Below, piece after piece: positions 42,646 to 62,804 of a DNA stretch of 64,000 nt. The DNA comes from Bacilli bacterium. GTDB lineage: Bacteria; Bacillota_I; Bacilli_A; RF39; UBA660. Both the position numbers and the translations under genes were made by a program. How positions within the stretch are numbered: the stretch's first letter is position 1; every line of letters begins with the position of its first letter. The notes under the pieces are model-generated. The model worked only from the letters and a program-made list of their open reading frames with translations, searched no databases and was not told the origin of the DNA. The stretch covers positions 67,138 through 131,137 of the forward strand of contig CAAGEE010000018.1 in the NCBI GenBank assembly GCA_900768815.1. The letters are read 5' to 3'.

Positions 42646-45600
42646 ATGAAGAAAATTATGGATGGTAATGAGGCTTGTAGTTATGTTTCTTATAACTTTA
42701 CAGAGGTAGCTGGAATATATCCAATTACACCGGCTTCTCCAATGGCTGAGATTACTGATAAATGGAGTAGTGAAGGTAAACTTAATTATTTTGGTACACC
42801 AGTAAAAGTAGTAGAAATGGAGTCTGAAGCAGGTGCAGCGGGAATGGTTCATGGTTCTTTGGAAGCAGGTTGTTTAACGACTACTTATACAGCTAGTCAA
42901 GGATTATTATTAATGATTCCTAATATGTATAAAATTGCTGGAGAAATGTTACCTTGTGTTATAAATGTAGCAGCTAGATCTCTTGCAACTCATGCTTTAT
43001 CAATATTTGGAGATCATCAAGATATTTATGCAACTAGAGCAACTGGTTTTGCAATGCTTGCTTCGTCTTCTGTACAACAAGTTATGGATTTAACTGGTGT
43101 TGCTCATTTAGCAGCTATAAAGGGAAGAGTACCTTTTTTGAATTTTTTCGATGGATTTAGAACTAGTCATGAGTTACAAAAGATTGATGTAATAGATACA
43201 GATAAATTAAAAAGATTGATTGATGAGAAAGCTCTTAATGAGTTTAGAGATAGGGCTTTAAATCCTGATAAACCATTTATAAAAGGTACGGCACAAAACG
43301 AAGATATTTATTTTCAGGCTACAGAAGTTAGAAATGAATACTATAATAAAATTCCAGATATAGTATGTAAATATATGGAAGAGGTTAATAAGATCACTGG
43401 AGGAAATTATCAGCCATTTAATTATTATGGTAGTAAGACTGCTACTAAGGTTATAGTTGCGATGGGCTCTGTTTGTGAGACTATAAAAGAAACTGTTGAT
43501 TATTTAATAGAAGAGAAGAACGAAAATGTTGGATTATTAGAGGTACATTTATATAGACCTTTTAGTACTAAGTATTTTTTGAGGGCTTTACCAAAATCGG
43601 TTAAGAAGATTGCTGTACTTGATAGAACTAAGGAACCTGGTTCTACTGGGGAACCTTTATACTTGGATGTTGTTAAAACAATAAAAGAAATAGATGCTAA
43701 AGTATTGGTTGTTGGTGGTAGATATGGTTTATCTAGTAAGAATACTACACCGGCTATGATTAAGGGTTTATATGACTTTTTAGATACGAGAGAGGTTCAT
43801 AATAATTTTACATTGGGTATTAATGATGATGTTACTAAGTTATCAGTTAAGTATGATAAGAATTTTAGAATACCAAGTAATAATATTGAATTTTTGATAT
43901 ATGGTTTTGGTAGTGATGGTATGGTTAGTGCTTCTAAGGATATTATGAAGATTACCGGTACTTATACTAATGCTTATGTACAAGGTTATTTCCAATATGA
44001 TTCTAAGAAGTCTGGTGGAGTAACTATATCTAACTTAAGATTTGGTAAGAAACCAATTAAGTCTACTTATTATGTTGAAAAAGCATCGTTAATTGTTTGT
44101 ACTAAGGATTCTTATTTAAAACGTATGAAGATGCTTGAGAAGATTAAGAATAAAGGTGTATTTGTTTTAAATACGACTAAGAGTCCAGATGAAGTTTTAG
44201 CTTCTATGAGTGCACATGATAAGAAGATTTTACGTGATAGAAATGTTAAAATGTTTATTATTAATGCGACTAAGATGACAGAAGATGCTGGTATTGCTGG
44301 TAAGATTAGTGCAATTATGGAGGCATTAATATTTAAATTAGGTAAGATTGTTGATTTTAATTTTGCATTGGGTAAGATTAAAGAAAGTTTAGCGGTTAAA
44401 TTTTCTAATAAAGGTGGTGACTTAGTTACTAAGAATATCGCAGCAATTGATGCTAGTTTAGATGGACTTGTTCCTGTTAAAATACCAAATGTTGACTATG
44501 TAGAAGAGTTTGCTAAAAAGAAGAGTTTCTTTGAAATGATTGATAGTATGGAAGGAGATAATCTTCCTGTTAGTAGTTTTATAAAGATACCTGATGGTAC
44601 TTTTGAAGCTGGTACTTCTAAGTATGATAAGAGGGATTCTTCAGATATGGCACCTTGTTATAATGCGGAGAATTGTATTTCTTGTAACTTGTGTTCTTTG
44701 GTTTGTCCACATGCTGTTATTAGGCCATTCTTATTAAATGAAAAAGAACAAATAGATGCACCTGAGTCTGTTAGTCGTAATTTGATACCGGCTAATATTA
44801 AAGATAAAGATTATATGTTTACAGTTGGAGTTAGTTTACCTGATTGTACTGGTTGTTCTTTATGTAGTGAAATTTGTCCTGGTAAGAAGGGTGCTAAGGC
44901 TATTGTTATGAAGATGAAGGATGCTTTACTTGCTGATAAGAAGGATGAAGAGTATAAATATTTATTTAACGAGGTTAGTGAGAAAAAAGATGTTATGCCA
45001 ACTAATACAGTTAAGGGTAGTCAATTTAAGAAACCTAGGTTAGAGTTTCCTGGAGCATGTGCTGGTTGTGGTGAGACTCCATATTTGAAGTTGTTGACAC
45101 AATTATTTGGGGAGAAGTTGGTTATTGCGAATGCGACAGGATGTTCTTCTATATATGGTGCTTCAACTCCATCTATGCCTTATTCAATACCTTGGGCTAA
45201 TTCATTATTTGAAGATAATGCGGAATTTGGTTTTGGTATGAAGGTTGCTGATTCTGCTATTAAGAATAGAATTGTTAGTTTGATTAAGAATAATATTAAA
45301 GATGTTAAGAAGAGTGAAATTGATATTTATAAGGGATATGCTGCTGATATTAATGATGATACAGCTAAGGCTTTATTAGAAGTTATTGATGAGACTAAGA
45401 TTGAAGGCTTGGCTAAGTTAAAGAGCTTTGTTTCTCCTAAGTCTATTTGGTTAGTTGGTGGAGATGGATGGGCATATGATATTGGTTATAATGGAATAGA
45501 TCATGTTTTAGCTAATAAAGAGAATGTTAATATTTTAGTTCTTGATACTGAGGTTTATTCTAATACGGGAGGTCAGTCTTCTAAGTCTACTAGAACTGGA

Positions 45601-46074
45601 GCAGTTGCTAAGTTTGCTGCTGCTGGTAAACAGACGGCTAAGAAAGATTTAACAAAGATTGCTCTTACTTATGAACATGTATATGTTGGTACTATTTCAT
45701 TGGGAGCAAATCCAAATCAAGCTATTAAGGTATTAAAAGAGGCTGAAGCATATAATGGTCCTTCTATTATTGTTGCTTATGCACCTTGTATTGCACAAGG
45801 AATAATTAAGGGAATGAAGAATAGTATTAATGAGGAAAAGATTGCAACAGAGGTTGGATACTTCCCATTATTCCATTACAATCCAGCTAGTTTAGAGTTT
45901 AGGCTGGATAGTAAAGCTGATTTTTCTAAGTATGAAGAATTTATACTTGGTGAGGATAGATATCGTTCTTTAAAGAAACTAAATAAAAACGCTAAAGAAT
46001 TACTAGATAAAAATAAAGAGAATGCTATTAAGAGATATAAATATTATGAGAGTTTAGCAAATAGAGAAGAGTAG
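42646..46074 (+). CDS. nifJ: pyruvate:ferredoxin (flavodoxin) oxidoreductase
   Basis: About 1142 aa. Two ferredoxin-type CxxCxxCxxxCP clusters (CISCNLCSLVCP, CTGCSLCSEICP). TPP-binding region GGDGWAYDIGYNG. Strong RBS ggaggatctgataatatg. Terminator downstream. Confidence 0.9.
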   Translation: MKKIMDGNEACSYVSYNFTEVAGIYPITPASPMAEITDKWSSEGKLNYFGTPVKVVEMESEAGAAGMVHGSLEAGCLTTTYTASQGLLLMIPNMYKIAGEMLPCVINVAARSLATHALSIFGDHQDIYATRATGFAMLASSSVQQVMDLTGVAHLAAIKGRVPFLNFFDGFRTSHELQKIDVIDTDKLKRLIDEKALNEFRDRALNPDKPFIKGTAQNEDIYFQATEVRNEYYNKIPDIVCKYMEEVNKITGGNYQPFNYYGSKTATKVIVAMGSVCETIKETVDYLIEEKNENVGLLEVHLYRPFSTKYFLRALPKSVKKIAVLDRTKEPGSTGEPLYLDVVKTIKEIDAKVLVVGGRYGLSSKNTTPAMIKGLYDFLDTREVHNNFTLGINDDVTKLSVKYDKNFRIPSNNIEFLIYGFGSDGMVSASKDIMKITGTYTNAYVQGYFQYDSKKSGGVTISNLRFGKKPIKSTYYVEKASLIVCTKDSYLKRMKMLEKIKNKGVFVLNTTKSPDEVLASMSAHDKKILRDRNVKMFIINATKMTEDAGIAGKISAIMEALIFKLGKIVDFNFALGKIKESLAVKFSNKGGDLVTKNIAAIDASLDGLVPVKIPNVDYVEEFAKKKSFFEMIDSMEGDNLPVSSFIKIPDGTFEAGTSKYDKRDSSDMAPCYNAENCISCNLCSLVCPHAVIRPFLLNEKEQIDAPESVSRNLIPANIKDKDYMFTVGVSLPDCTGCSLCSEICPGKKGAKAIVMKMKDALLADKKDEEYKYLFNEVSEKKDVMPTNTVKGSQFKKPRLEFPGACAGCGETPYLKLLTQLFGEKLVIANATGCSSIYGASTPSMPYSIPWANSLFEDNAEFGFGMKVADSAIKNRIVSLIKNNIKDVKKSEIDIYKGYAADINDDTAKALLEVIDETKIEGLAKLKSFVSPKSIWLVGGDGWAYDIGYNGIDHVLANKENVNILVLDTEVYSNTGGQSSKSTRTGAVAKFAAAGKQTAKKDLTKIALTYEHVYVGTISLGANPNQAIKVLKEAEAYNGPSIIVAYAPCIAQGIIKGMKNSINEEKIATEVGYFPLFHYNPASLEFRLDSKADFSKYEEFILGEDRYRSLKKLNKNAKELLDKNKENAIKRYKYYESLANREE

Positions 46075-46580: not shown

Positions 46581-48575
46581 ATGCAATTAAAAGATGTAAA
46601 AGGTATTGGACCTAAATCTCTTTCTTTATTAAATAAAATTAATATTAATAGTGTAGAAGATTTGGTAACACATTATCCTTTCCGTTATGAAATACTTGAA
46701 AGATGTAATTTGGCAGAAATAGAAGATGGAGGGAAAATTATAATAGATGGAAAAATTGAAAGTGTTCCTATATTAATGCATTTTAAAGCAGGACTTAATA
46801 AAATGAATTTTAGATTAGTAACAGCTTCTGGTGTAGTAGGAGTTTCAATTTTTAATAGAGCCTTTTTAAAGTCACAACTTACAGTTGGAACTGGGGTTAC
46901 AGTTATTGGAAAACTTGATAAGACTAAGAATGTTATAACAGCTTCTGATATAAAGTTAGAAACTTTAATGAATAAAGTAAAAATAGAGCCAGTATATCAT
47001 TGTACTGCGGGTCTTACAAATAAGAATATGTCAACATATATAAATATGGCTTTGTTGATGTTTGGAAAAGAAATATTTGATTATATACCTAGTGTTTATT
47101 TAGAAAGATATAACTTTTTAAATAAGAAGACATCATTAAATATTATTCATAATCCATCAACAATAGAAAAGTTAAAAGAGGTAAAGATTAGGCTTAAATA
47201 TGAAGAGTTATTTGCTTTTATGTTTAAGATTAATTATTTGAAATTACAAAATAAGAAAAAAAATAATGGTCTTTCTAGAAGTATTGATCGAGAGAAGATT
47301 GATAAGTTTATTGATGGGTTACCATTTAAGTTAACTGATGATCAGTTGAAAGCTGTTGATGAGATCCTTGGGGATTTAGAATCTAGTAGTCGAATGAATA
47401 GATTGTTACAGGGTGATGTTGGTTCTGGAAAGACGATTGTTTCTTTTATTGCAATGCTTGCGAATGATTTATCAGGATATCAAAGTGCTTTAATGGCACC
47501 TACAGAAATTTTAGCAACACAACATTATAATAACTTAAAGAACTTTTTAGGAGATAGTAATATTAATGTAGAGTTACTTACTGGCTCTACTCCTAAGAAG
47601 GATAAAGTTAGAATATATGAAGGATTAAAAGATGGAAGTATTTCAATGGTTGTTGGTACTCATGCTTTAATACAAGATGAGGTTGAGTATAATAATTTAG
47701 GTTTAGTAATTACAGATGAACAGCATCGTTTTGGAGTACATCAAAGAGCTAATTTACAAAATAAAGGGATTAAACCAGATGTTTTATATATGAGTGCTAC
47801 TCCTATACCTAGAACTTATGCTTTAACAATATTTGGAGATATGGATGTTTCTACGATAAAGACAAGACCTAAAGGGAGACAGAAAATAGATACTTATGTA
47901 AAGAAAAATAATGAGATTAAAGATGTACTTGGAATGATGTATAAAGAGTTAAAAGAAGGACATCAAGTATATGTTATTGCTCCGTTGATAGAAGATACAG
48001 ATAATTCTAGTGATCTTGCTACTGTATGTAATTTAAAAGATCAGATGAAGTTGGCTTTTGGAGATAAATATAAAATAGATATAGTACATGGTAAGATGGC
48101 AGCTTTAGCAAAAGAAGCAATAATGGAACAATTTAAAGAAAATAAAATACAAATACTTATATCAACAACAGTTATAGAAGTTGGGGTAGATGTTTCTAAT
48201 GCTACGACAATGGTTATTTTTGATGCAGATCGATTTGGACTTTCAACGTTACATCAATTAAGAGGTAGAGTTGGTAGAGGTACTTCTAAGTCTCAGTGTA
48301 TATTAATTAGTGATAGTGATACTGAAAGATTAAAAATAATGGAAACTGTTGATGATGGGTTTGTTATTAGTGAGGAAGACTTTAAATTAAGAGGACATGG
48401 GGATTTATTTGGTACTAAACAGTCAGGAGATATGACTTTTAAGATTGCTAATATAAGAGAAGATTATAAGATATTATTACAGGCTAAGAAAGATTCTAAA
48501 GAGTACTTACTTGATAAGAATAGTGATGAAGATGTATTAAAGAAAAAATTAATTAGTGATATAACAGAAGGATAG
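46581..48575 (+). CDS. recG: ATP-dependent DNA helicase RecG
   Basis: N-terminal wedge region. GDVGSGKT (Walker A), DEQHRFGV (Walker B/DEQH), and LRGRVGRG near the C-terminus. RBS aggaag then ATG. Confidence 0.9.
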   Translation: MQLKDVKGIGPKSLSLLNKININSVEDLVTHYPFRYEILERCNLAEIEDGGKIIIDGKIESVPILMHFKAGLNKMNFRLVTASGVVGVSIFNRAFLKSQLTVGTGVTVIGKLDKTKNVITASDIKLETLMNKVKIEPVYHCTAGLTNKNMSTYINMALLMFGKEIFDYIPSVYLERYNFLNKKTSLNIIHNPSTIEKLKEVKIRLKYEELFAFMFKINYLKLQNKKKNNGLSRSIDREKIDKFIDGLPFKLTDDQLKAVDEILGDLESSSRMNRLLQGDVGSGKTIVSFIAMLANDLSGYQSALMAPTEILATQHYNNLKNFLGDSNINVELLTGSTPKKDKVRIYEGLKDGSISMVVGTHALIQDEVEYNNLGLVITDEQHRFGVHQRANLQNKGIKPDVLYMSATPIPRTYALTIFGDMDVSTIKTRPKGRQKIDTYVKKNNEIKDVLGMMYKELKEGHQVYVIAPLIEDTDNSSDLATVCNLKDQMKLAFGDKYKIDIVHGKMAALAKEAIMEQFKENKIQILISTTVIEVGVDVSNATTMVIFDADRFGLSTLHQLRGRVGRGTSKSQCILISDSDTERLKIMETVDDGFVISEEDFKLRGHGDLFGTKQSGDMTFKIANIREDYKILLQAKKDSKEYLLDKNSDEDVLKKKLISDITEG

Positions 48576-50261: not shown

Positions 50262-50395
50262 TTGACAATTTAGTAAAATTCATTTATGATTAAGATGCGT
50301 GATGCATGTCACGCCGATATCTCTTACGTTTGTATGTAAGAGTATATTCAACCGAACCCCCTGAAGAGAGCATTTAACCGTGCTCTCATTTTTTG
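50262..50395 (+). ncRNA. candidate small RNA (promoter to intrinsic terminator, no ORF)
   Basis: TTGACA, 17-nt spacer, TATGAT at 50262-50290. The roughly 100-nt transcript has hairpins gcgtga..tcacgc and cttac..gtaag, an exposed C-rich stretch aaccccctgaag, and a terminator hairpin agagagca..tgctctc followed by T6 at 50365-50395. Confidence 0.4.
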
Positions 50396-50615: not shown

Positions 50616-50644
50616 TTGACATATTGTTCCGGAAACGGTATAAT
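50616..50644 (+). promoter_or_regulatory. consensus sigma-A promoter
   Basis: TTGACA, 17-nt spacer, TATAAT (50616-50621 and 50639-50644), 20 nt upstream of ATG 50665. Confidence 0.65.
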
Positions 50645-50664
50645 CTATATGTGAGGTGATAACT

Positions 50665-50988
50665 ATGCATATTAAAGATGTAAAAGATATTAGTGATGTT
50701 ACTAAAGATATTAAAGATCTAACAGAGCAAAAGAAAAATCCAACAAGAGAGGGCATGGAAAAAGTAATAAAAAGTGTTAGAGAACATTTAATATTAGAAA
50801 CAGAAGTATATGAGGATACTTTGTGTGTAGTTAATAATAGTACTAAAGTAAATATAGAGAATATTGATAGTAAAGTGTTATATAATCGATTAGATGCTTA
50901 TAAAACTATATGCTTAGGCTATTTATTAAATAAGTATGGTAAAGAAGCATTTGATAAAATTATTAAAGAATACAATTTGGAGGTGTAG
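50665..50988 (+). CDS. small hypothetical protein upstream of fic (candidate antitoxin-like partner)
   Basis: RBS gaggtga 6 nt before the ATG. 107 aa. Ends 1 nt before the fic start. Confidence 0.5.
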   Translation: MHIKDVKDISDVTKDIKDLTEQKKNPTREGMEKVIKSVREHLILETEVYEDTLCVVNNSTKVNIENIDSKVLYNRLDAYKTICLGYLLNKYGKEAFDKIIKEYNLEV

Positions 50989-50989
50989 A

Positions 50990-51910
50990 ATGAAATTTAT
51001 GACAATAAAAGAAGTAAGTGAAAAATGGAATATTAGTGAAAGAAGGATAAGACAACTTATTCAAAATGGTAGAATATTGGGTGCAGAAAAAATTGGTACT
51101 GCATGGTATATTCCAAATGATGTTGGGAAGCCAGTTGATAAAAGAGTGAAAGATGAAATTGAATTTAAAATTGATCTACCAGAAGATTATTTTAAAGAAG
51201 TTGATGAAAAACTTGCTAAGCTAAATAGTAAGAGGCCATTATCAAAAGAAGCCACTGAGTCATTACAAAATGCAATTAATCTAGAATGGACATATAACAG
51301 TAATGGTATTGAAGGTAATACTTTAACATTAAAAGAAACTAAAGTTGTGTTGGAAGGAATTACTATTGGTGGTAAGTCTATAAAAGAACACTTAGAAGCT
51401 ATTAATCATGAAAATGCTATTGAGTATTTAGAAGGATTAGCGAAAGATAAAAGTGAAATATCTGAATGGAACATTAAAGGATTACATCAGTTAATTTTAA
51501 AAGGTATAGATGATGATAATGCTGGAAGATATAGAAATCATAATGTTATTATAAGTGGGGCAAAGCACAGGCCACCAGAATATATAAAAGTTCCAGAATT
51601 AATGGAAAAGTTAATGATAAACTATGATGATTGGGATAAATATCATCCAATAGTAAGAGCATCTTTGTTACATGGAGAGTTAGTTAAAATCCATCCATTT
51701 ATTGATGGAAATGGTAGAACATCTAGATTAATAATGAACATGGATTTAATGAGAAGTGGATATGTACCAGTTATTATAAAAAAAGATAATAGATTAAAGT
51801 ATTATGAAGCACTTGATAAAGCACATACAACAGGTGATTATACGGAGTTTGTTAAATTAGTAACAGAAGCAGAAAATGAAATGCTTGATAGATATTTGTC
51901 CGTTGTATAA
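50990..51910 (+). CDS. Fic family protein with N-terminal HTH domain
   Basis: RBS ggaggtg. HPFIDGNGRTSRL matches the Fic motif HPFx(D/E)GNGR. The N-terminal MTIKEVSEKWNISERRIRQLIQNGRILGAEKIG is an HTH. Confidence 0.8.
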   Translation: MKFMTIKEVSEKWNISERRIRQLIQNGRILGAEKIGTAWYIPNDVGKPVDKRVKDEIEFKIDLPEDYFKEVDEKLAKLNSKRPLSKEATESLQNAINLEWTYNSNGIEGNTLTLKETKVVLEGITIGGKSIKEHLEAINHENAIEYLEGLAKDKSEISEWNIKGLHQLILKGIDDDNAGRYRNHNVIISGAKHRPPEYIKVPELMEKLMINYDDWDKYHPIVRASLLHGELVKIHPFIDGNGRTSRLIMNMDLMRSGYVPVIIKKDNRLKYYEALDKAHTTGDYTEFVKLVTEAENEMLDRYLSVV

Positions 51911-51940
51911 TAGATACTATTAATTAGGGAGGTTTGCGGT

Positions 51941-53434
51941 ATGGAAAAAATATTATTAGACACTAATATGTTTATATATTTGGAAGACTATGCAGTGACA
52001 GAGGATAAAGTTGCAACTTTAACCAAAAGACTATTTGATTCTGATCAGTATAAAATTGTGATACATCCAAAAACAAAAGAAGAAATATTAAAAATATCTG
52101 ATAGTGAAAAAAGAGCTATTTTTTCTTCAAAAATATCTGTGTATAGAGAAATAAAATCAGCTCCTAAAGCTACCAAGGAATTTAATGATACGGTTGGTTG
52201 CAACAACAGTCATGATGCAATTGATAATGAGTTACTATTTTCAATATATAGAAATTGTGCGCAGTATTTAATTACTAATGATAAAGATTTAATTAAAAAA
52301 TCACAAAAAATTGGACTTAGTGATCGAGTTTTATCTATTGATCAAGCACTTGAAAAATTCCAAGAAAAGGCACCAGAAGATGTCAGAAAGCCAGTTTTTA
52401 TAAACTACAAATATTTACATGAATTAGATATAAATGACACTTTCTTTGATTCGTTAAAAGTAGATTATGCAGGATTTGAAAAATGGTTTAAAAAGAAACA
52501 ATTAAAAGAAGCTCAGGCATATGTTACTGAATTTGATGGAAAATTAACCTCATTTTTAATGCTAAAAGTTGAAAATGAAGATGAAGACTATAAAGATTTT
52601 TTAAAACCATTTAGGCCTGCAAGAAGATTGAAAATATCAACTTTAAAAGTTGCTGATACGGGTAAAAGAATTGGGGAAACATTTATTAAAATTATTGTGG
52701 AAAAGGCAATAAAAGAAGATATTGATGAAATATATGTTACAGTATTTGATAAGCAAGAATTTTTAATCGATATGCTTGAAAGCTACGGCTTTAAAAAATA
52801 TACTAAGAAAAAAACTCTAAGATCAGATAGTGGTATTGAATTAGAAAATGTTCTCGTCAAAAGCATGAAAAATAAAGAAAACTATTATCCTTTTTTTGAA
52901 ATTGATGATAATAGAATATTCCTTGTTCCTATTCGTGATAAATATCATCGTTTGCTATTTCAAGAATCAGAAAAGCAATTTCAATTAAGTTTGGAAGATT
53001 TTCAAGGAAAAAATGTTGCTTCTAATTCGTTAAAAAAAGCCTATTTATGTGATTCGAAAATAAAGCAAATACAAAAAGGATCTATACTGTTGTTTTATTC
53101 ATCGGGAACAAAAAAGTCTATAACATCATTAGGTATTGTTGATGCAGTATTTAATAAGTTTGACAATTTTGATGAAATGTTTAATTTGGTGAAAAAAAGA
53201 ACTGCATATGATGAACATGAGCTTAGAGAAAACTTTAAAAATGATAAGTTAGTAATACTATTTAAACTATATTATTCTTTTGATAATTATGTTGACTTTG
53301 AATTTCTTAAAAGTAATAAAATAGTTAATGGAGCAATTCAAACTATACAACATATCAACAAAGAACAGTTACTACAAATACTTGAAAAGTGTAAAATGAA
53401 GAAAGAAATTTATTTAATAGATAAAAATACATAA
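51941..53434 (+). CDS. multi-domain protein: PIN-like nuclease, GNAT-like acetyltransferase, PUA-like (EVE/ASCH-like) domain
   Basis: N-terminal ILLDTNMFIY...ITNDKDL (PIN acidic residues). Middle LKISTLKVADTGKRIGETFIKIIVEKA...EIYVTV (GNAT motif A-like). C-terminal beta-barrel-like region GSILLFYSSGTKKSITSLGIVDAV. RBS gggaggt. Confidence 0.55.
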   Translation: MEKILLDTNMFIYLEDYAVTEDKVATLTKRLFDSDQYKIVIHPKTKEEILKISDSEKRAIFSSKISVYREIKSAPKATKEFNDTVGCNNSHDAIDNELLFSIYRNCAQYLITNDKDLIKKSQKIGLSDRVLSIDQALEKFQEKAPEDVRKPVFINYKYLHELDINDTFFDSLKVDYAGFEKWFKKKQLKEAQAYVTEFDGKLTSFLMLKVENEDEDYKDFLKPFRPARRLKISTLKVADTGKRIGETFIKIIVEKAIKEDIDEIYVTVFDKQEFLIDMLESYGFKKYTKKKTLRSDSGIELENVLVKSMKNKENYYPFFEIDDNRIFLVPIRDKYHRLLFQESEKQFQLSLEDFQGKNVASNSLKKAYLCDSKIKQIQKGSILLFYSSGTKKSITSLGIVDAVFNKFDNFDEMFNLVKKRTAYDEHELRENFKNDKLVILFKLYYSFDNYVDFEFLKSNKIVNGAIQTIQHINKEQLLQILEKCKMKKEIYLIDKNT

Positions 53435-53475
53435 TAATTATGATATTATATTATATATAATAGGAGGTAGGTAAA

Positions 53476-53850
53476 ATGTGTAAGATTTTAATGCCAATAA
53501 ATCCTGAATATGTAGATGAAATTCTTTCTGGAAACAAAAAATATGAATATAGAAAAATAAAAGCTAAAAGAAAAAACATAGATAAAATGGTTATCTATTC
53601 TACATCACCAATTATGAGAGTAGTCGCTGAAGTAGATGTTGAAGGAATAATTGAAGCTTCTCCTGAAAAGTTATGGGAGCAAACAAAAGAATATTCTGGT
53701 ATTACAAAAGATTTTTATTCTAAATACTATAAGAATAAAGAAAATGCGATAGCCTATAAATTAGGAAATATTAAAGTATATGATAAGCCAAAAAAACTTT
53801 GTGATATTGGGATAAATTATGTTCCACAATCATTTATTTATTTAGATTAA
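53476..53850 (+). CDS. ASCH domain protein
   Basis: MPINPEYVDEILSGNKKYEYRK matches the ASCH N-terminal motif I-x-P-x-Y-x-x-x-I-x-x-G-x-K-x-x-E-x-R. RBS ggaggtaggtaaaatg. Confidence 0.7.
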   Translation: MCKILMPINPEYVDEILSGNKKYEYRKIKAKRKNIDKMVIYSTSPIMRVVAEVDVEGIIEASPEKLWEQTKEYSGITKDFYSKYYKNKENAIAYKLGNIKVYDKPKKLCDIGINYVPQSFIYLD

Positions 53851-54543: not shown

Positions 54544-54725
54544 TCTAATACCTCCTTTAATTACAAATAAATTGCTTGGAAGGTATTATACCAATTATAA
54601 ATCTTATTGCACAACTTCTGTGCACTTCTTTTTTTAAAATACAACTAAATTAATAATCTTCATCTTTTATTGCTAAAGCACTAAAAAATGAAAAAATATG
54701 ATATAATCATTATGAGGTGTATAGA

Positions 54726-56549
54726 ATGATTAAACATACTGATCCGTATAAAGTTTCTCAGATATTCTCAAATGAGAAAACTATTATATATAAGATTCCA
54801 AAGTATCAAAGAGAATATACATGGGGACAAAAAGAATGGGGATTATTATTTAATGATATTATTGAAAATGATTATGGTTATTTTTTAGGTTCAATAATTT
54901 GTGTAGATAAAAGTGTAAGTGCTATGGGTGATGTTGAACTAGAAGTAATTGATGGTCAACAAAGAATTACATCATTATCTTTATTGCTTGTATCTTTGTA
55001 TGAAAAGTTAAATATCTTTAAAAATAAATTAGATGAGGATCAAATAACAGACTTAAATAATATTAAAAGGGAACTTGTTATAAGGTCTAATGGTGAAAAT
55101 ATAGCACGTTTGACTCCACAAATACAAAATGATAATAGAAATGATTACTTTAGTTTGTTATGTGAAAAAGGTTTACTTGCTGATAAGGAAAGAAAGAACT
55201 ATGCTGGTTTAAGAAGAGTATATAAAGCTTATGCATATTTTTCAAATGCTGTAGATAAATATATTGAAGAATTAAATCCTCAAAACGATAATGACAAGAT
55301 TAATGCATTGTTTGAATTGGTTAGAAGGTTTAATTCAGCAGTGTTAGTTTCGATAGAGGTAGAAACTAATAAAGATGCTTATATGTTATTTGAATCACTT
55401 AATAACAGAGGAGTTCCTTTATCAGCAATTGATTTAATTAAGAATCTGCTTATTAGTATTTCAGATAGAGATGGAAAAGCAGAAGAGTGTTATACTATTT
55501 GGAAAAAGATTATTTTTTATTTAAGTGATGATTATGGAGTGCAAGAAAGATTCTTTAGACAGTTTTATAATGCATACAGGGATGAATTAAATAAACCATA
55601 TAAAACAGAAGGAAAAACAAAATATGCATTAGGATATTTAGCAACGAGAACTACATTGTTAGATATTTATGAAAAATTATTAAAAGATGATTATATGACA
55701 TTTTTAAATAGATTAGAAGCTGAAGCCAAAAACTATGCTATCTTAATAAATAATACAACAGAAGATAATTATAATGAAGCATTGGCCGAATCGTTATTAG
55801 ATTTAGATAGAATTCAAGGCGCCCCTTCTTACATATTACTATTATACTTATTATCTAACAAAAGTATATTAAATATAAATGATGATATTATTAAAGATAT
55901 CATTGAGTATTTAACAAAGTTCTTTGTACGCAGAAATATTACAGACTATCCAAATACAAGAAACTTAACAAAAATATTTATGGATATAGTTGCTTTGATA
56001 GAAGGTAAAACAGGAAGAGAAATATATGATATTACTGTTAATTACTTAAAAGAAAATTCATCATCTGATGAAGAATTTGAAAAGAAGCTTAATGGACCAA
56101 TATATTTAGATAATCCTGATGCCACTAGATTCTTATTATGTTATTATGAAAATAAGTTTAAAACGAATGAGATTTATACTGACTTGTGGGAAAGAAATAA
56201 TAATAAATATGTATGGACTATTGAACATATTTTCCCAGAGGGTAATAATGTACCACAAGACTGGGTTGATATGATTGCTAATGGTGATAGAGATTTAGCT
56301 AATGAATATCTAATCAAATATACACATACTTTAGGTAATTTAACTATTACAGGTTATAATCAAACATTAAGTAATCTATCTTATGAAAAAAAGAATAATC
56401 GTACAAATAAAGATGGAAATTATGTTGGATATAAGAATGGTTTGAAATTAAATGAAGATGTTGTTGACTTACCAGCATGGACAAAAGACAACATTGAAAA
56501 TAGAACCAAAAAGTTAGTTACATTTTTTAAAAATGAATTTAAATTATAA
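54726..56549 (+). CDS. GmrSD-family type IV restriction endonuclease-like protein (DUF262 plus DUF1524)
   Basis: N-terminal IPKYQREYTW and EVIDGQQRITSL (DUF262/ParB-like NTPase). C-terminal WTIEHIFPEGNNVPQDW and LGNLTIT (DUF1524 His-Me finger). RBS tgaggtg 6 nt before ATG 54726. An in-frame GTG at 54717 is also possible. Confidence 0.75.
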   Translation: MIKHTDPYKVSQIFSNEKTIIYKIPKYQREYTWGQKEWGLLFNDIIENDYGYFLGSIICVDKSVSAMGDVELEVIDGQQRITSLSLLLVSLYEKLNIFKNKLDEDQITDLNNIKRELVIRSNGENIARLTPQIQNDNRNDYFSLLCEKGLLADKERKNYAGLRRVYKAYAYFSNAVDKYIEELNPQNDNDKINALFELVRRFNSAVLVSIEVETNKDAYMLFESLNNRGVPLSAIDLIKNLLISISDRDGKAEECYTIWKKIIFYLSDDYGVQERFFRQFYNAYRDELNKPYKTEGKTKYALGYLATRTTLLDIYEKLLKDDYMTFLNRLEAEAKNYAILINNTTEDNYNEALAESLLDLDRIQGAPSYILLLYLLSNKSILNINDDIIKDIIEYLTKFFVRRNITDYPNTRNLTKIFMDIVALIEGKTGREIYDITVNYLKENSSSDEEFEKKLNGPIYLDNPDATRFLLCYYENKFKTNEIYTDLWERNNNKYVWTIEHIFPEGNNVPQDWVDMIANGDRDLANEYLIKYTHTLGNLTITGYNQTLSNLSYEKKNNRTNKDGNYVGYKNGLKLNEDVVDLPAWTKDNIENRTKKLVTFFKNEFKL

Positions 56550-57199: not shown

Positions 57200-57280
57200 G
57201 TTTTTATCCTGTTTAATTTTATATCAAAAACCAATTTACTAATAGATTTGATTCATGCTATAATTTGGTTAGGTGAAATT

Positions 57281-58009
57281 ATGAAATTTGTAGAGTTAAA
57301 ATGTAAAAACTGTGGGGCTAAATTAGAGGTTGAAGAAGGAACTACTCAAGTTACTTGTAAGTTCTGTGATACGACTTTTTCTATTGATGATGCTTATACT
57401 CAAGGGTATAAATATACTAAGGGTGTATTGAAAGCACAAGATGAGCAATATGAAAAGAATCTTGAACGAGCTAAGGATTTTATGAAAAATAATCCTATTT
57501 CTAAATCTTCAAAGATTATGAGTATTATATTTGTGATAATTTTCTTTTTAGTCTTTTGCTTTATTGGGTATAATATCTATAATGATTTTTATGCTGATCA
57601 TTCTACTGATAATCATTCTACTGATAATCGCTTTGAGATTAAGTCTTTTAATATGCCATATGAGAATAATTCTGGCAGAAGATCTGGTTTCTTTTTGATT
57701 GGTAGTCTTGATGATATTGTTACTAATAATAAGACAAATAAAGAACATGCAATTATAGTTGTTTATAAAGATGTTACAACTGTTGAGGAAACTGAGATTA
57801 AAAAGATTAGAGATAGTTTAAGTTCTAGAAAGGATTATGATGTATCGCTTGATTATGATAGTAAAGGTTATGTGAATAAATTTATTATTGCAGATATTGA
57901 TACTGATAATAGTGTTGCTTCTTCAGAGACAGATATAGATGATTATAATCAAATGAAAGAGGAAGTAGAAAACCAGATTAATGAGATTAGAGATAAAATT
58001 GGTAATTAA
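57281..58009 (+). CDS. zinc-ribbon membrane protein (hypothetical)
   Basis: RBS ttaggtgaaatt. N-terminal CKNCGAKL...CKFCDT zinc ribbon. One TM helix. A tandem 15-nt repeat (HSTDN twice) lies inside. Confidence 0.55.
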   Translation: MKFVELKCKNCGAKLEVEEGTTQVTCKFCDTTFSIDDAYTQGYKYTKGVLKAQDEQYEKNLERAKDFMKNNPISKSSKIMSIIFVIIFFLVFCFIGYNIYNDFYADHSTDNHSTDNRFEIKSFNMPYENNSGRRSGFFLIGSLDDIVTNNKTNKEHAIIVVYKDVTTVEETEIKKIRDSLSSRKDYDVSLDYDSKGYVNKFIIADIDTDNSVASSETDIDDYNQMKEEVENQINEIRDKIGN

Positions 58010-58062
58010 AATTGAGAATCTAAATTAGATTCTTTTTTGATATAATTATAGTGGAGGTATGT

Positions 58063-58509
58063 ATGAGGGTTTCTAGTAGATGTGTGTTAATTGAAAATGA
58101 CAAAGTATTATTAATTTATAGAGAGAAGAATGATAGGATTTATTATGTTTTTCCGGGTGGTGGAGTTGAAGATGGTGAGACTAATGAAGAATGTTTAATT
58201 AGAGAATGTAGAGAAGAGTTAGGAATAAAAATTAATATTATTAAGCAATTATATGAAGTTAAAGGAAAAGACTTTTTGCAACATTTCTTTTTAATAGAAA
58301 GAATATCTGGAAAGATTGGTAGTGGGGATGCTAATGAGTATGATATCAATAGAGTTGGTGGTTTACAAAAACCGATGTTTATTGATATTAATAAATTAGT
58401 TGATTTAGATGTTGTGTCTAGACCAATAGTTGAACAATTATTAAATGATTATAAAAAATATGGTTCTGGTTTAGGAAAAGAAATTATAACAATTGATGAA
58501 GATAAATAA
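58063..58509 (+). CDS. NUDIX hydrolase
   Basis: RBS ggaggtatgt. GGGVEDGETNEECLIRECREELGI is the Nudix box Gx5Ex7REUxEExGU. Confidence 0.75.
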   Translation: MRVSSRCVLIENDKVLLIYREKNDRIYYVFPGGGVEDGETNEECLIRECREELGIKINIIKQLYEVKGKDFLQHFFLIERISGKIGSGDANEYDINRVGGLQKPMFIDINKLVDLDVVSRPIVEQLLNDYKKYGSGLGKEIITIDEDK

Positions 58510-58530: not shown

Positions 58531-59829
58531 ATGAATGAAATAAAATGTCCAAAGTGTGGTACTGTTTTTCAGATAGATGAGGCAGATTATGATTCAATAG
58601 TAAAACAAGTTAGAGATAAAGAATTTGATAAGGAAATAAGTTCTAGAGAAGAACAGCATAAAGTAGATAGAGAAAATGCTGTTAAGTTGGCAGAAGCACA
58701 TATTAAAGAAGAGTTAGGGCAAGAACTTAATAGAAAAGATTTAGAAATTAGTGAGTTAAAATTATCATTAAAAGTAAATGAAGAGAAAACTATAAATAAA
58801 GTTGAAAAAGAGTATCAAGAACAGATAAATAAATTACAGTTACAAATAACAGAGTTAAAGAGTAAGATGCAGTTACAAGAGTCTAAGAGTGAGTTAGATA
58901 TACAAAAGGCTGTATCTGAAAAGAATCAGAAAATATCGGATTTAAGTAGTGAACTTGCTCTTAAGAGTAAAGAATTCGAGTTGAAAGAAACTACGATAAA
59001 AGAATCATATGAAAATAAGTTAAAAGATAAGGATGATCAAATTGCATATTATAAAGATTTTAAAGCTAAACAGTCTACAAAGATGATTGGGGAATCTTTA
59101 GAACAACATTGTAATGTAGAGTTTAATAGATTAAGACCATTATTTAAGAATGCTTATTTTGAAAAAGATAATGATGCTAGAACTGGATCTAAGGGAGATT
59201 TTATATTTAGAGATTACGATGATGATGGTAATGAGATTGTTTCTATTATGTTTGAGATGAAGAATGAAGCGGATATGACAGCGACTAAACATAAGAATGA
59301 AGATTTCTTTAAGGAGCTTGATAAAGATAGAAAAGAGAAGAAGTGTGAGTATGCAGTACTTGTTTCATTATTAGAGGCAGATAATGATTACTATAATGAT
59401 GGTATTGTAGATGTATCACATTTATATGATAAGATGTATGTTATTAGACCGCAGTTTTTTATACCTTTAATAACATTAATTAGAAATCTTGCGAATAAGT
59501 CATTAGAATATAGAAAAGAACTAGAAACTATTAAGAATCAAAATATAGATATTACACATTTTGAAGAGAATATTAATACATTTAAAGAAGGTTTTGGTAG
59601 AAACTATAGACTAGCGGCAGAAAGATTTCAAAAAGCAATAGAGGAAATTGATAAGACAATTGATCATTTACAAAAGACAAAAGAACATTTATTAAAGACT
59701 AATGATAATTTAAGACTGGCTAATAATAAAGCAGAAGATTTAACTATAAAAAAATTGACACATAATAATCCAACAATGAGTAAGATGTTTGAAGAATTAG
59801 AAAATAAAGAAAAAACATTAGAAGAGTAA
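58531..59829 (+). CDS. DUF2130-like protein (N-terminal zinc ribbon plus long coiled coil)
   Basis: RBS gaggagg. MNEIKCPKCGTVFQIDEADYDSIVKQVRDKEF. Extensive coiled coil. C-terminal FIFRDYDDDGNEIVSIMFEMKNE restriction-endonuclease-like beta strand. Confidence 0.6.
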   Translation: MNEIKCPKCGTVFQIDEADYDSIVKQVRDKEFDKEISSREEQHKVDRENAVKLAEAHIKEELGQELNRKDLEISELKLSLKVNEEKTINKVEKEYQEQINKLQLQITELKSKMQLQESKSELDIQKAVSEKNQKISDLSSELALKSKEFELKETTIKESYENKLKDKDDQIAYYKDFKAKQSTKMIGESLEQHCNVEFNRLRPLFKNAYFEKDNDARTGSKGDFIFRDYDDDGNEIVSIMFEMKNEADMTATKHKNEDFFKELDKDRKEKKCEYAVLVSLLEADNDYYNDGIVDVSHLYDKMYVIRPQFFIPLITLIRNLANKSLEYRKELETIKNQNIDITHFEENINTFKEGFGRNYRLAAERFQKAIEEIDKTIDHLQKTKEHLLKTNDNLRLANNKAEDLTIKKLTHNNPTMSKMFEELENKEKTLEE

Positions 59830-59925: not shown

Positions 59926-61383
59926 ATGTATCAATTAAAGTATGATAATTTATTTACAAATATAATAGAAGATAAAAGTCATTTACTATGGAAAAATATA
60001 GATGATGTTTCAGCTGACGTGATGGATTTTATTAATAGTAAATCAGATAGTAGAGTTATTTATGTAGAGAGTGAAGATAAATATTATTGTAGTAAATGCT
60101 TGATGGAACTTAGTGATTCTAAATGTCCTAATTGTAGAAAGGAGATTGATAAAGATAATGTCCTTAAGATTTCTAATTTATCGGTACTTGATGAGGAGAA
60201 TTTTTTCTATAGTTATTACGTTTTTGATATTGTAGATAGAGAAGTTATTGTTTATAAAATAAAAGAAAATGTTAAGTATAGAGACGCTATTTTACCGATA
60301 AGATATAGGTATAGGGAATATAAGATTAGTGAAGTGTATGCTATTAATAAGAATAAGATAGTAGATATAAATGAGAATAAAGAATGTTTTTATAAAGACT
60401 TTTATACATATGATGATAATGATACTTTCTTAGACTTTATAGATAATGGATATTATTCGTATTTGTATGTTGGTAATTTAGAACAGTTAAAGTATGTTGA
60501 TATTTATAAGTATTCATTTATTTGGTTGGGTAAGGAATTCTTAGAGAAACGAAATGATATAAGTTTATTGGATATTACTTATAGTGCTCTTTATTATAGA
60601 CAGTTTGAATATTTGATAAAGTTAGGTTTTTATAATTTGGCATTTAGTTGTAATTGTTCTTGGATAGAAGATGAGTCTAAAGATATACTTGGAGTACCTA
60701 GAGGATATTATGAGTTTATGAGGAGTATAGATATTACTGTTTCACAATTAGAAGTTTTAAAGATTGTTAGGAGTTGTGATATTGATATTATTAATTTTTA
60801 TGAAGATTATCTTTATTTACTTTATGAACATGAAGATTATAAATATTTTGATATATTAAAAAAATATTTTGAGGAGAATGGTTATAAGAATGAGAGGTTA
60901 GTTGAGTACTTTGATTATCTTTCTTTAGTAGAAAAATGTGGACTTGATATGAAAGAAAAAAAAGTTTTATTTCCAAGTGATTTAGAAAAAGTACATGATA
61001 AGTTATCAGAAGAGTATATTTTGATGGAAAATCCAGAAATTGATAAGAAAATAAAATCTGTTAGTAATATTCTTAGTTTAAACAGATATGAAGATGATAA
61101 GTATATTATTTTTCCAGTACAATCAATTAATGGTTTGGTTGATGAGTCAAGTCAGATGCATAATTGTGTTAGAAGCTATTATGAAAGGGTTGCTGATGTT
61201 AAGAGTGAAGTTTATTTTATGAGAGAAAAAAATAGTATAGAAAAATCATTTGTTACTGTAGAGGTACGTAGGGGAAAAATAGTACAGGCTAGAAGTAAGT
61301 ATAATGGTGATGTTAGTGATGCTGTGTGGAAAGTATTAAGGAAATGGGAAAAGAGTTTGGTTTTGATAGATGAGGAAGAATAG
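59926..61383 (+). CDS. PcfJ-like protein
   Basis: N-terminal CSKC...CPNC zinc ribbon. The C-terminal NGLVDESSQMHNCVRSYYERV...VTVEVRRGKIVQARSKYN resembles the conserved PcfJ domain core (MxHCV...Y...TiEv..g.ivQ). Confidence 0.55.
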   Translation: MYQLKYDNLFTNIIEDKSHLLWKNIDDVSADVMDFINSKSDSRVIYVESEDKYYCSKCLMELSDSKCPNCRKEIDKDNVLKISNLSVLDEENFFYSYYVFDIVDREVIVYKIKENVKYRDAILPIRYRYREYKISEVYAINKNKIVDINENKECFYKDFYTYDDNDTFLDFIDNGYYSYLYVGNLEQLKYVDIYKYSFIWLGKEFLEKRNDISLLDITYSALYYRQFEYLIKLGFYNLAFSCNCSWIEDESKDILGVPRGYYEFMRSIDITVSQLEVLKIVRSCDIDIINFYEDYLYLLYEHEDYKYFDILKKYFEENGYKNERLVEYFDYLSLVEKCGLDMKEKKVLFPSDLEKVHDKLSEEYILMENPEIDKKIKSVSNILSLNRYEDDKYIIFPVQSINGLVDESSQMHNCVRSYYERVADVKSEVYFMREKNSIEKSFVTVEVRRGKIVQARSKYNGDVSDAVWKVLRKWEKSLVLIDEEE

Positions 61384-61519: not shown

Positions 61520-61755
61520 AGTAATTTCGTTGATGAAGAAATTATCTAAGTAGTTATTTAGAATTCTATACAGGGAATAATGGTTAGCAACTGAGAGCCA
61601 TTTTAGAGAGTCTAAGTAATGAATTTCAATAATGGAGTCAAATCGTGATGAGCGTTATTCTATAGAGTGCTAAGTAATTAGAACAAAGGTGGTACCGCGG
61701 ATTTAATAGTGATTCGTCCTTTTTATGGATGATCACTATTTTTTATTTATAAGAG
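61520..61755 (+). promoter_or_regulatory. T-box riboswitch leader (Phe-tRNA sensing) upstream of pheS
   Basis: Conserved T-box sequence aacaaaggtggtaccgcg at 61682-61699. It is followed by a terminator hairpin (tagtgattcgtcc...ggatgatcacta then T6) overlapping the spurious 61725 start. Confidence 0.75.
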
Positions 61756-61766
61756 AGGGATGCAAT

Positions 61767-62804
61767 ATGAAAGAAAAATTAGAAGAAATCAGAAGTAAGG
61801 GATTAAAAAAAATTGAAGAAGTAGAAAAATTAGAAGATTTACAAGAAGTTACTAGAGAGATTACTGGTAAGAAAAGTGAATTGACTGAAGCTTTAAAGTC
61901 TCTTAGTGAATTATCAGTAGAGATGAAGAAGACTATTGGTATGCAAGCTACAGAGATTAAGAAGTTGTTTGCTGATAAGTTAAAAGAAAAAGAAGATGAA
62001 TTAATTAATGCTAAGAGCGTTGTTGATAAACCTTTAGATTTAACTTTACCAGGTATTGAAGTTGAAGGTGGTGCACTTCATCCAATTACACAAATGTGTT
62101 ATGACTTAAATGATGCCTTCTTATCACTTGGATTTGAGGTTTATAGTGAAGATGATATTAGTAGTGAGAAGTATGCTTTTGATAATTTGAATTTCCCTGC
62201 TGATCATCCTGCTCGTCAATCTATGGATACATTCTGGTTGGATGGAACTGAAGATAAAGCTGGAAATGAACGTTTATGTTTAAGACCACATTTAACAGGT
62301 GGGTCTGTTAGATACTTATTAGAGCATGGAGCTCCTGCTAGATTCGTATATCCTGGTAGAGTTTATAGAAATGAAACTACTGATGCTAGACATGAGAGAG
62401 CTTTCTTCCAATATGAAGCTTTAATAGTTGACAAAGATATTTCATTCTCATCTGGTATGGTTATGATTCAAACTATTTTAGAGAAAGTATTTGGTAGAAA
62501 AATCAATGTTCGTATGAGAGAGGGATTTTTCCCATTTACTGAGCCTGGATATGAAATAGATATGGAATGTTTAGTATGTGGTGGTAAAGGTTGTAAAGTA
62601 TGTAATCATAATGGTTGGATAGAAGTTATGCCAGGTGGAGTAATTCATCCAAATGTATTAAAGTCTGCTAATTTAGATCCGGAAGAATGGACTGGATTCT
62701 ATATTAATATAGGATTAGATAGATTGGTTATGATGCGTTATGGAGTAGATGATGTTAGATTATTCCATAGTGGAGATTTAAGATTTTTGGAGCAATTTAA
62801 GTAG
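61767..62804 (+). CDS. pheS: phenylalanine--tRNA ligase alpha subunit
   Basis: RBS agagaggg. Class II aaRS motifs: FPADHPARQSMDTFW, LRPHLTG (motif 2 region), GLDRLVMMRYGVDDVRLF (motif 3). Confidence 0.9.
   Translation: MKEKLEEIRSKGLKKIEEVEKLEDLQEVTREITGKKSELTEALKSLSELSVEMKKTIGMQATEIKKLFADKLKEKEDELINAKSVVDKPLDLTLPGIEVEGGALHPITQMCYDLNDAFLSLGFEVYSEDDISSEKYAFDNLNFPADHPARQSMDTFWLDGTEDKAGNERLCLRPHLTGGSVRYLLEHGAPARFVYPGRVYRNETTDARHERAFFQYEALIVDKDISFSSGMVMIQTILEKVFGRKINVRMREGFFPFTEPGYEIDMECLVCGGKGCKVCNHNGWIEVMPGGVIHPNVLKSANLDPEEWTGFYINIGLDRLVMMRYGVDDVRLFHSGDLRFLEQFK

Follow-up and report, generated by a model that had tools for sequence, protein, structure and literature searches.

The (PIN)-GNAT-EVE fusions described by Bell, Wolf and Koonin (2020, BMC Biol 18:159, PMC7641849) are encoded in operons that almost always include an ASCH gene, and these authors read them as putative toxin-antitoxin systems. 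According to the same work, the PIN-bearing forms are found near defense systems and the PIN-less forms in prophages, fusions of helix-turn-helix (HTH) and ASCH domains and AAA_17 ATPases are seen in some of the operons, and the ASCH domain was suggested to bind DNA and regulate expression. Bell et al. credit Iyer et al. (2013, NAR 41:7635) with an earlier description and with the idea that the GNAT domain acetylates DNA bases. A two-gene entry of this kind, PDC-M11, is held in PADLOC-DB as a phage-defense candidate and is reported routinely in genome surveys.

In this work, we analyzed a window of 64,000 nt from a Bacilli bacterium (RF39, UBA660; assembly GCA_900768815.1, contig CAAGEE010000018.1, positions 67,138 to 131,137 of the forward strand), in which a gene for a PIN-GNAT-EVE fusion protein (A) is followed by a gene for a standalone ASCH protein (B). 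Protein A matched the PADLOC profile PDC-M11A (PDLC04422) with an E-value of 2.6e-141, residues 3-490 aligning with positions 2-498 of the 501 in the profile, and protein B matched PDC-M11B (PDLC04425) at 5.1e-44 over residues 3-124. The pair is a typical member of a family that has already been described and catalogued. The original prediction for this locus, made by a model from the letters of the sequence, held that no described system had this combination of genes; that claim of novelty is refuted by the description of Bell et al. (2020), crediting Iyer et al. (2013), and by the PADLOC entry. As in the published operons and in PDC-M11, a three-domain protein precedes an ASCH gene, and the contexts are defense islands, plasmids and prophages. 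Two of the published variants, the HTH-ASCH fusion and the AAA ATPase neighbor, were also recovered here, from a rhizobial plasmid. The window copy differs in having no AAA_17 ATPase and no HTH on B, and in adjoining an HTH-Fic gene and a GmrSD gene rather than type I restriction-modification genes, but nothing essential sets it apart.

Relatives of both proteins are encoded by Escherichia phage PhiR47_2, a lambdoid coliphage (PV340567.1), where a PIN-less homologue of A and an ASCH gene, located between cI and kil, are annotated as "GevT toxin" and "GevA antitoxin." GevT (357 aa) is 30% identical to residues 154-486 of A (E 7e-32), and GevA aligns with the full length of B at 40% identity (E 2e-35). 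Both partners are therefore homologous between the two pairs and stand in the same order, the open reading frames (ORFs) of GevT and GevA overlapping. The phage pair differs in its location, the immunity region of a lambdoid genome, and in the lack of the PIN domain, which in A forms an extra N-terminal portion of ~145 aa. Judging from these alignments, the window pair appears to be the PIN-bearing cellular counterpart of GevT/GevA, placed within a defense island. The reading that we favor, with a probability of roughly 0.45, is that A and B constitute a two-gene conflict module, of the toxin-antitoxin or abortive infection type, in which A would be an RNA-directed toxin and B would counteract it by the steps proposed below.

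Both ORFs are real and lie exactly where the original prediction had placed them, 41 bp apart and each preceded by a strong Shine-Dalgarno sequence (table 1), in a window that is AT-rich (~26-30% GC) and has nearly all of its genes on the + strand. With hundreds of homologues and the PADLOC E-values given above, the assignment is well outside the reach of chance. When Pfam was run on A alone, it returned only sub-threshold matches, to PIN_3 at residues 3-116 (E 0.028), Acetyltransf_1 at 179-284 (E 0.21) and EVE at 372-481 (E 0.06), although their order along the protein agrees with the predicted architecture. Clearer results for the N-terminal domain came from the family. Among 27 diverse bacterial and archaeal N-terminal domains, PIN_3 was matched by 18 (best E 5e-6), Pfam PIN by 13, PIN_12 by 7 and PIN_4 by 6. 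In the family alignment, D7, D95 and D114 are invariant, D92 is nearly so, and position 48 is E or D in nearly all sequences; these residues make up the acidic set of PIN domains. A structure model of residues 1-145 (pLDDT, the predicted local distance difference test, of 87.6) matched SSO1118, VapC15, VapC11, FitB, HARP (a protein-only RNase P), Utp24/Fcf1 and SMG6 in a Foldseek search of the Protein Data Bank (PDB), and these neighbors of the modeled PIN domain all appear to be RNA-acting. Because searches of the N-terminal domain against PDB sequences, by phmmer and with a domain profile, gave marginal matches only, it is the family-wide Pfam counts together with the domain model that settle the PIN call. 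VapC toxins share the PIN fold with the N terminus of A, in which, however, PIN is one domain of a fusion; a VapBC-type system was rejected, since the PIN domain does not stand alone and no VapB-like gene is present.

In the AlphaFold2 model of full-length A (pLDDT 85.8), the central part matched Naa60, PaiA, Naa50 and Ard1 by Foldseek. A profile search aligned the segment T240-G-K-R-I-G245 with the acetyl-CoA loop of Naa50 (R-G-I-G-I-G), and G241, G245 and E246 are conserved in at least 95% of 48 family sequences. The model and the alignment thus indicate a GNAT fold with a predicted acetyl-CoA-binding loop. The toxins TacT and AtaT are single-domain GNAT proteins that acetylate aminoacyl-tRNA and are partnered by a DUF1778/ribbon-helix-helix antitoxin encoded upstream, whereas A is a three-domain fusion with an ASCH gene downstream. 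Membership of the GNAT type II toxins (TacT/AtaT/KacT) was rejected on account of the fusion and of the ASCH partner, and also because none of these toxins was among the 50 best Foldseek matches of A.

As for the C-terminal barrel, the top Foldseek match of the whole A model was an ASCH structure from Zymomonas (5gus, E 6.7e-7), a precomputed EVE match (PF01878) is present in many A homologues, and a weak profile match linked the barrel to the EVE-like structure 2ar1. Aligned by hhalign, the A barrel and B shared 118 columns (E 6.5e-4), running from the N-terminal "P-I-x-P-x-Y" strand through the C-terminal "PQS" motif. The G-K-E-R octapeptide of B is missing from the A barrel, and we infer from this that the barrel is a binding module rather than a hydrolase. 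By these profiles and models, all three domains of A (PIN, GNAT and an EVE/ASCH-type barrel) had been correctly called. Together with the ASCH assignment of B, all four domains of the original prediction are borne out by profiles, AlphaFold models and Foldseek, including the GNAT fold of the middle region, which had been named as an example of a call that might fail.

We scanned one genome per species and recovered 55 loci encoding relatives of A, from Bacilli, Clostridia, Erysipelotrichaceae, Mycoplasmataceae, Dehalococcoidia, Alphaproteobacteria, Kosmotogaceae and many archaea, including Methanomicrobia, Methanosarcinales, Thermoplasmata and Thermococci. In 53 of these loci, A is followed directly by a homologue of B in the same orientation, and the contigs of the other two end at or just after A, leaving 53 of 53 informative loci with the pair. 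The reverse comparison used the 76 viral contigs that have a B-type ASCH gene and enough sequence upstream of it: a GNAT-EVE gene is found directly upstream in 73, only 3 of which include a PIN domain. The ORFs of A and B overlap in archaeal and Dehalococcoidia loci, suggesting translational coupling. The linkage of A and B is obligate; the original prediction, which had made its proposal depend on the two genes being paired in other genomes, is upheld on this point as well. Clustered at 50% identity, the family comprises 1,715 representatives with E <= 1e-3. The best matches are almost all full-length proteins of ~500 aa, and the cellular homologues among the best matches listed almost all include the PIN domain.

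No conserved third gene was found across the family when the two nearest flanking genes on each side were surveyed in 36 non-redundant loci. The flanking genes are heterogeneous, some of them encoding Fic proteins, type I and type II methylases, integrases, TnpV or Imm5-like proteins. Lineage-specific arrangements do exist. In a sub-lineage of Clostridia, a four-gene order is found, made up of a DUF3850-type ASCH gene (~115 aa), A, an XRE-type HTH gene (~127 aa) and B (table 1); in one further locus (L016) the XRE-type HTH gene is present and the upstream ASCH gene was not detected. On a Rhizobium plasmid, a gene upstream of A encodes a protein of 301 aa that is annotated as HTH-containing and whose residues 160-288 form a B-type ASCH domain (E 1.7e-22); an AAA ATPase is encoded downstream. 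Homologues of the pair are carried on plasmids, and also by an archaeal prophage. In the latter, psiM100 of Methanothermobacter (L060, 2498-4343), the PIN-bearing A homologue ORFD overlaps the B homologue ORF5 (E 7e-38). Most of ORFD lies inside an annotated "inserted fragment IFa" that is absent from phage psiM2, and ORF5 is annotated as common to psiM2, suggesting gain or loss of the toxin gene beside a resident ASCH gene.

A few loci showed peculiarities of their own. In a metagenome-assembled genome of Mycoplasmataceae (L053, 7603-7968), the B homologue has two in-frame stops under translation table 11, presumably because TGA encodes Trp (genetic code 4). In six loci (L029, L030, L031, L032, L036 and L054), A was matched only partly or in pieces, as ORFs of ~300-350 aa or with no usable start, beside an intact B; these broken copies of A are possibly pseudogenized toxins or the product of assembly frameshifts. 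Four A homologues (P0332, P0347, P0378 and P0383) are longer (~612-621 aa), with ~120 additional residues N-terminal to the PIN domain.

Protein B matched Pfam ASCH above the gathering threshold (E 3e-7), and its octapeptide G19-N-K21-K-Y-E24-Y-R26 follows the pattern G-x-K-x-x-E-x-R, that is, the GKER type. All of the 26 B sequences compared have K21, E24 and R26; Y41 and S119 are also invariant, and Q118 is nearly so. Searched against the PDB, a profile of these 26 sequences retrieved the Zymomonas protein ZmASCH (5GUQ/5GUS) over the whole domain (E 1e-19), whereas YqfB gave no match at E <= 10. ZmASCH itself matched the PDC-M11B hidden Markov model at 3e-29, and residues Y41, Q118 and S119 of B align with its Tyr47, Gln127 and Ser128. 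ZmASCH binds single-stranded nucleic acids and cleaves single-stranded RNA in a Mg-dependent manner, with contributions from Tyr47, Lys53 and Ser128 (Kim et al. 2017, PMC5615036). In a 2026 preprint (10.64898/2026.02.27.708502), it was assigned to the "GKER" octapeptide group; 19 of the 19 ASCH proteins assayed there stripped N4-acetylcytidine at position 34 (ac4C34) from Escherichia coli tRNA in vitro, with Lys and Glu of the octapeptide serving as catalytic residues. The same preprint reported that ZmASCH was inactive on the free ac4C nucleoside and that its overexpression in E. coli had no significant effect. In the alignment, the invariant residues of B fall on the cleft of ZmASCH and on the octapeptide, the Lys and Glu of which catalyze ac4C removal from tRNA.

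Although ZmASCH is the closest characterized relative of B and shares its GKER octapeptide, it is the product of a solitary gene. In Zymomonas mobilis (L058, 3825-5447), the gene of the crystallized protein follows one for an unrelated 375-aa protein with a hydrophobic, signal-peptide-like N terminus, and there is no GNAT-EVE partner. This neighbor showed no similarity to A by BLASTP, PADLOC or hhalign, and ZmASCH was therefore rejected as an operonic orthologue. Three viral loci (L084, L092 and L140) also have a B-type ASCH domain without a GNAT-EVE partner, which in L140 forms the C-terminal part of a 212-aa protein. The amidohydrolases of the YqfB type, which act on ac4C, have the ASCH fold and the octapeptide Lys and Arg in common with B, but their motif is GK[T/S]R with a catalytic Thr, where B has Glu24. 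This substitution and the missing YqfB match rule out B as a YqfB-type enzyme. The "eraser-like" label given to B in the original prediction consequently finds no support if drawn through YqfB and partial support if drawn through ZmASCH, reported to remove ac4C from tRNA in vitro.

In the window, the interval from recG to pheS is a variable, defense-rich island, and A and B are located well inside it (table 1). The PglZ-like protein with a C-terminal GNAT domain stands directly after recG, at the edge of the island. As no terminator was predicted between Fic and A or between A and B, the three genes may share a transcript here, and the sigma-70 sequence upstream of orf110 is a candidate promoter from which orf110, Fic, A and B may all be transcribed together. 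In L001 and L050, A-B is also directly preceded by a Fic gene (86-88% identical), and in L008 and L010 a Fic gene of another lineage (~28% identical) lies just 5' of the ASCH-A-HTH-B cluster. Fic was considered as a third core component and rejected, because it adjoins A-B in only 4 of the 36 non-redundant loci, belongs to two lineages that are ~28% identical, and is absent from L002-L004, whose A proteins are 84-97% identical to that of the window; we regard it as a neighbor. On the other side of the pair, the HTH_38 fragment may be what a mobile element left behind between B and GmrSD. GmrSD is a modified-DNA-dependent nuclease whose presence is a mark of a defense island, and PcfJ-like proteins form a family associated with conjugative plasmids. 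An EVE-guided type IV restriction enzyme, in which an EVE reader is joined to a DNA endonuclease such as HNH or PD-(D/E)xK, was also considered for the pair and rejected: the only nuclease of the pair is a PIN domain with RNA-acting neighbors, and the GmrSD gene downstream is separate.

Table 1. Location of the gene pair, its domains and signals and the surrounding genes in the 64,000-nt window; the last row refers to other loci of the scan
Feature	Coordinates	Strand	Basis or remarks
PFOR (housekeeping)	42646-46074		Upstream of island
recG (housekeeping)	46581-48575		Upstream of island
PglZ/type I phosphodiesterase-like protein with C-terminal GNAT, 520 aa	48666-50228	+	PglZ-like region at residues ~172-329; GNAT E 3e-14; no PADLOC match
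Terminator-like site	50366-50387		Predicted
Candidate promoter, TTGACA-17-TATAAT	50616-50644	+	Consensus scan; 12/12 matches to sigma-70 consensus
orf110	50656-50988	+	
HTH-Fic	50936-51910	+	Pfam Fic E 1e-21; PADLOC SoFic and PDC-S04; ends 31 bp before A
Shine-Dalgarno of A, AGGGAGG	51926-51932	+	Read in sequence; 8 nt 5' of ATG
Gene A, PIN-GNAT-EVE fusion, 497 aa	51941-53434	+	ORF; PADLOC PDC-M11A; PIN-bearing GevT relative
A residues 1-140, PIN nuclease domain; acidic D7, E48, D92/D95, D114	51941-52360	+	Family-wide Pfam PIN matches, invariant residues, Foldseek
A residues 153-310, GNAT acyltransferase domain; acetyl-CoA loop T240-G241-K-R-I-G245	52397-52870	+	Foldseek, profile alignment
A residues 311-497, EVE/ASCH-type PUA-like barrel without GKER octapeptide; presumed nucleic-acid reader	52871-53431	+	Foldseek, precomputed EVE, hhalign
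Shine-Dalgarno of B, AGGAGG	53462-53467	+	Read in sequence; 8 nt 5' of ATG
Gene B, standalone ASCH protein, 124 aa	53476-53850	+	Pfam ASCH; PADLOC PDC-M11B; GevA homologue
HTH_38 ORF, 59 aa	54363-54542	-	E 1e-10; resembles N-terminal fragment of IS30-type transposase
GmrSD-family type IV restriction enzyme	54717-56549	+	GmrSD_N E 1.6e-37, GmrSD_C E 2e-14; ~870 bp 3' of B
Zinc-ribbon protein	57248-58009		
NUDIX protein	58051-58509	+	PADLOC PDC-S07, E 2e-15
DUF2130 protein	58531-59829	+	
PcfJ-like protein	59926-61383	+	
pheS (housekeeping)	61725-62804		Downstream of island
Four-gene Clostridia form	L008, 5645-8329		Also L007, L009-L015, L018, L019, L021, L026, L028, L030, L032

In the mechanism that we propose, A would be the toxic effector. 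Its EVE/ASCH-type barrel would dock it on RNA that is single-stranded or modified, tRNA being the likeliest substrate; the GNAT domain, using acyl-CoA, would acylate an amine of the substrate, either the N4 of cytidine or the amino group of aminoacyl-tRNA, and the PIN domain would cut the RNA. Upon a trigger provided by infection, acylation and cleavage would arrest translation. In uninfected cells, B, co-translated with A, would keep it harmless. It would most likely do this with the conserved nucleic-acid cleft and the amidohydrolase dyad of Lys and Glu that it has itself, either stripping off the acyl mark or occupying the same substrate, as DarG does for DarT. The resemblance to DarTG, in which a nucleic-acid-modifying toxin is paired with an enzymatic eraser antitoxin, is one of function only, since there is no homology to DarT or DarG. 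A toxin-antitoxin role receives additional support from the rhizobial ASCH fusion annotated with an HTH and encoded upstream of A, which is a classic antitoxin layout, and from the separate XRE-type HTH gene between A and B in Clostridia. The original prediction had suggested a toxin/antitoxin-like or anti-phage system built from an acetyl writer and an eraser. As a general idea the first part holds up, in view of the prediction in PMC7641849, the PDC-M11 entry, the GevT/GevA annotation and the defense island, while the writer-eraser mechanism is plausible but unproven. In its most specific form, the GNAT domain, guided by the barrel, would acylate tRNA, the PIN domain would cut the marked RNA, and B, as a GKER-type amidohydrolase, would continuously remove the mark, for example ac4C at illegitimate positions or an N-acyl group on charged tRNA. 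So narrow a version we consider doubtful.

Several points weigh against the proposed conflict module. The toxin and antitoxin roles of GevT and GevA are GenBank product names only, and our literature search found neither a paper behind the GevTA names nor an experiment on any PIN-GNAT-EVE protein, nor an experimental report of phage protection by the candidate PDC-M11. TacT and AtaT, the known GNAT toxins, are missing from the 50 best structural matches of A. Neighbor counts point to a modest enrichment of defense genes around A-B. The evidence for deacetylation by ZmASCH is mixed, as the protein was active only on tRNA in vitro and had earlier been reported as a single-stranded RNA nuclease. 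Finally, since B-type ASCH genes are sometimes found without A, in Z. mobilis and in the three viral loci, B has a function independent of A.

The main rival is a classical type II toxin-antitoxin system, in which B would neutralize A purely by protein binding and the ASCH domain would serve as a binding or DNA-operator module with no catalysis. The HTH-annotated ASCH protein of Rhizobium, upstream of A, and the XRE-type HTH gene of Clostridia do resemble autoregulating antitoxins, a DNA-binding and regulatory role is the one suggested for ASCH in PMC7641849, and the tight translational coupling of A and B would suit such a system. Nevertheless, we find it rather unlikely, because the invariant residues of B are those of the catalytic octapeptide (K21, E24 and R26) and of the ZmASCH cleft, not those of a variable protein interface, because B is at least as conserved as A, and because the B protein of the window has no HTH. 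In type II systems, such high conservation is unusual for a protein-binding antitoxin.

If the target were DNA, as in the proposal that PMC7641849 attributes to Iyer et al. (2013), the GNAT domain would acetylate a DNA base and the EVE and ASCH domains would read the modified DNA, so that phage DNA would be discriminated in a restriction-modification-like or type IV-like manner. A few of the neighboring genes do encode type I or type II methylases. Moreover, EVE domains read 5-methylcytosine and 5-hydroxymethylcytosine in the DNA targeted by other restriction enzymes, which we count in favor of this proposal. But the structural relatives of the PIN domain of A are RNA nucleases, the closest characterized ASCH protein acts on single-stranded RNA and tRNA, and the module has no DNA-type nuclease, methylase or helicase that recurs across the flanks of the 36 non-redundant loci. 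All of this makes a DNA-directed system very unlikely.

Still less probable, in our view, is that A is protective instead of toxic. In the counter-measure scenario of PMC7641849, phage GNAT-EVE proteins would acetylate aminoacyl-tRNAs and the host PIN-GNAT-EVE proteins would degrade the damaged tRNAs, which fits the scarcity of PIN among the viral GNAT-EVE genes as opposed to its presence in almost all of the best cellular homologues listed. A pure degrader would, however, have no need for the apparently competent GNAT loop that A retains; the phage form is annotated as a self-contained toxin-antitoxin pair with an ASCH antitoxin of its own, and the PIN-bearing form is also found in the prophage psiM100. 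The slightest chance of all goes to a housekeeping pair unrelated to conflict, with A as writer and B as eraser of an acetyl mark on tRNA or rRNA: the ASCH class does remove tRNA ac4C in vitro (preprint 10.64898/2026.02.27.708502) and a GNAT domain with a barrel could in principle write such a mark, but the distribution is patchy and looks like horizontal transfer, the neighborhood differs from locus to locus, with integrases, TnpV, restriction-modification genes and Fic among the neighbors, the genes are carried by plasmids and phages and, here, by a variable recG-pheS island, and it is not obvious why a housekeeping writer should need a conserved PIN nuclease.

The conflict module that we favor is not a new kind of system, as its architecture, its operon and its likely role are already in the literature and in a defense database. 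What the window adds is a clean and intact copy with the PIN domain, from the genome of a gut Bacilli bacterium, in a family of ~1,700 clusters (50%-identity level) that extends over bacteria, archaea, plasmids and phages and for which there is no published mechanism. The link between B and ZmASCH, taken together with the tRNA-deacetylase data on ASCH proteins, provides a testable hypothesis, namely an acyl-mark writer plus nuclease set against an eraser. If the writer-eraser reading is true, the pair would stand as a counterpart of DarTG for the acetylation of nucleic acids, and the recently reported tRNA-deacetylase activity of ASCH proteins would gain a biological role.

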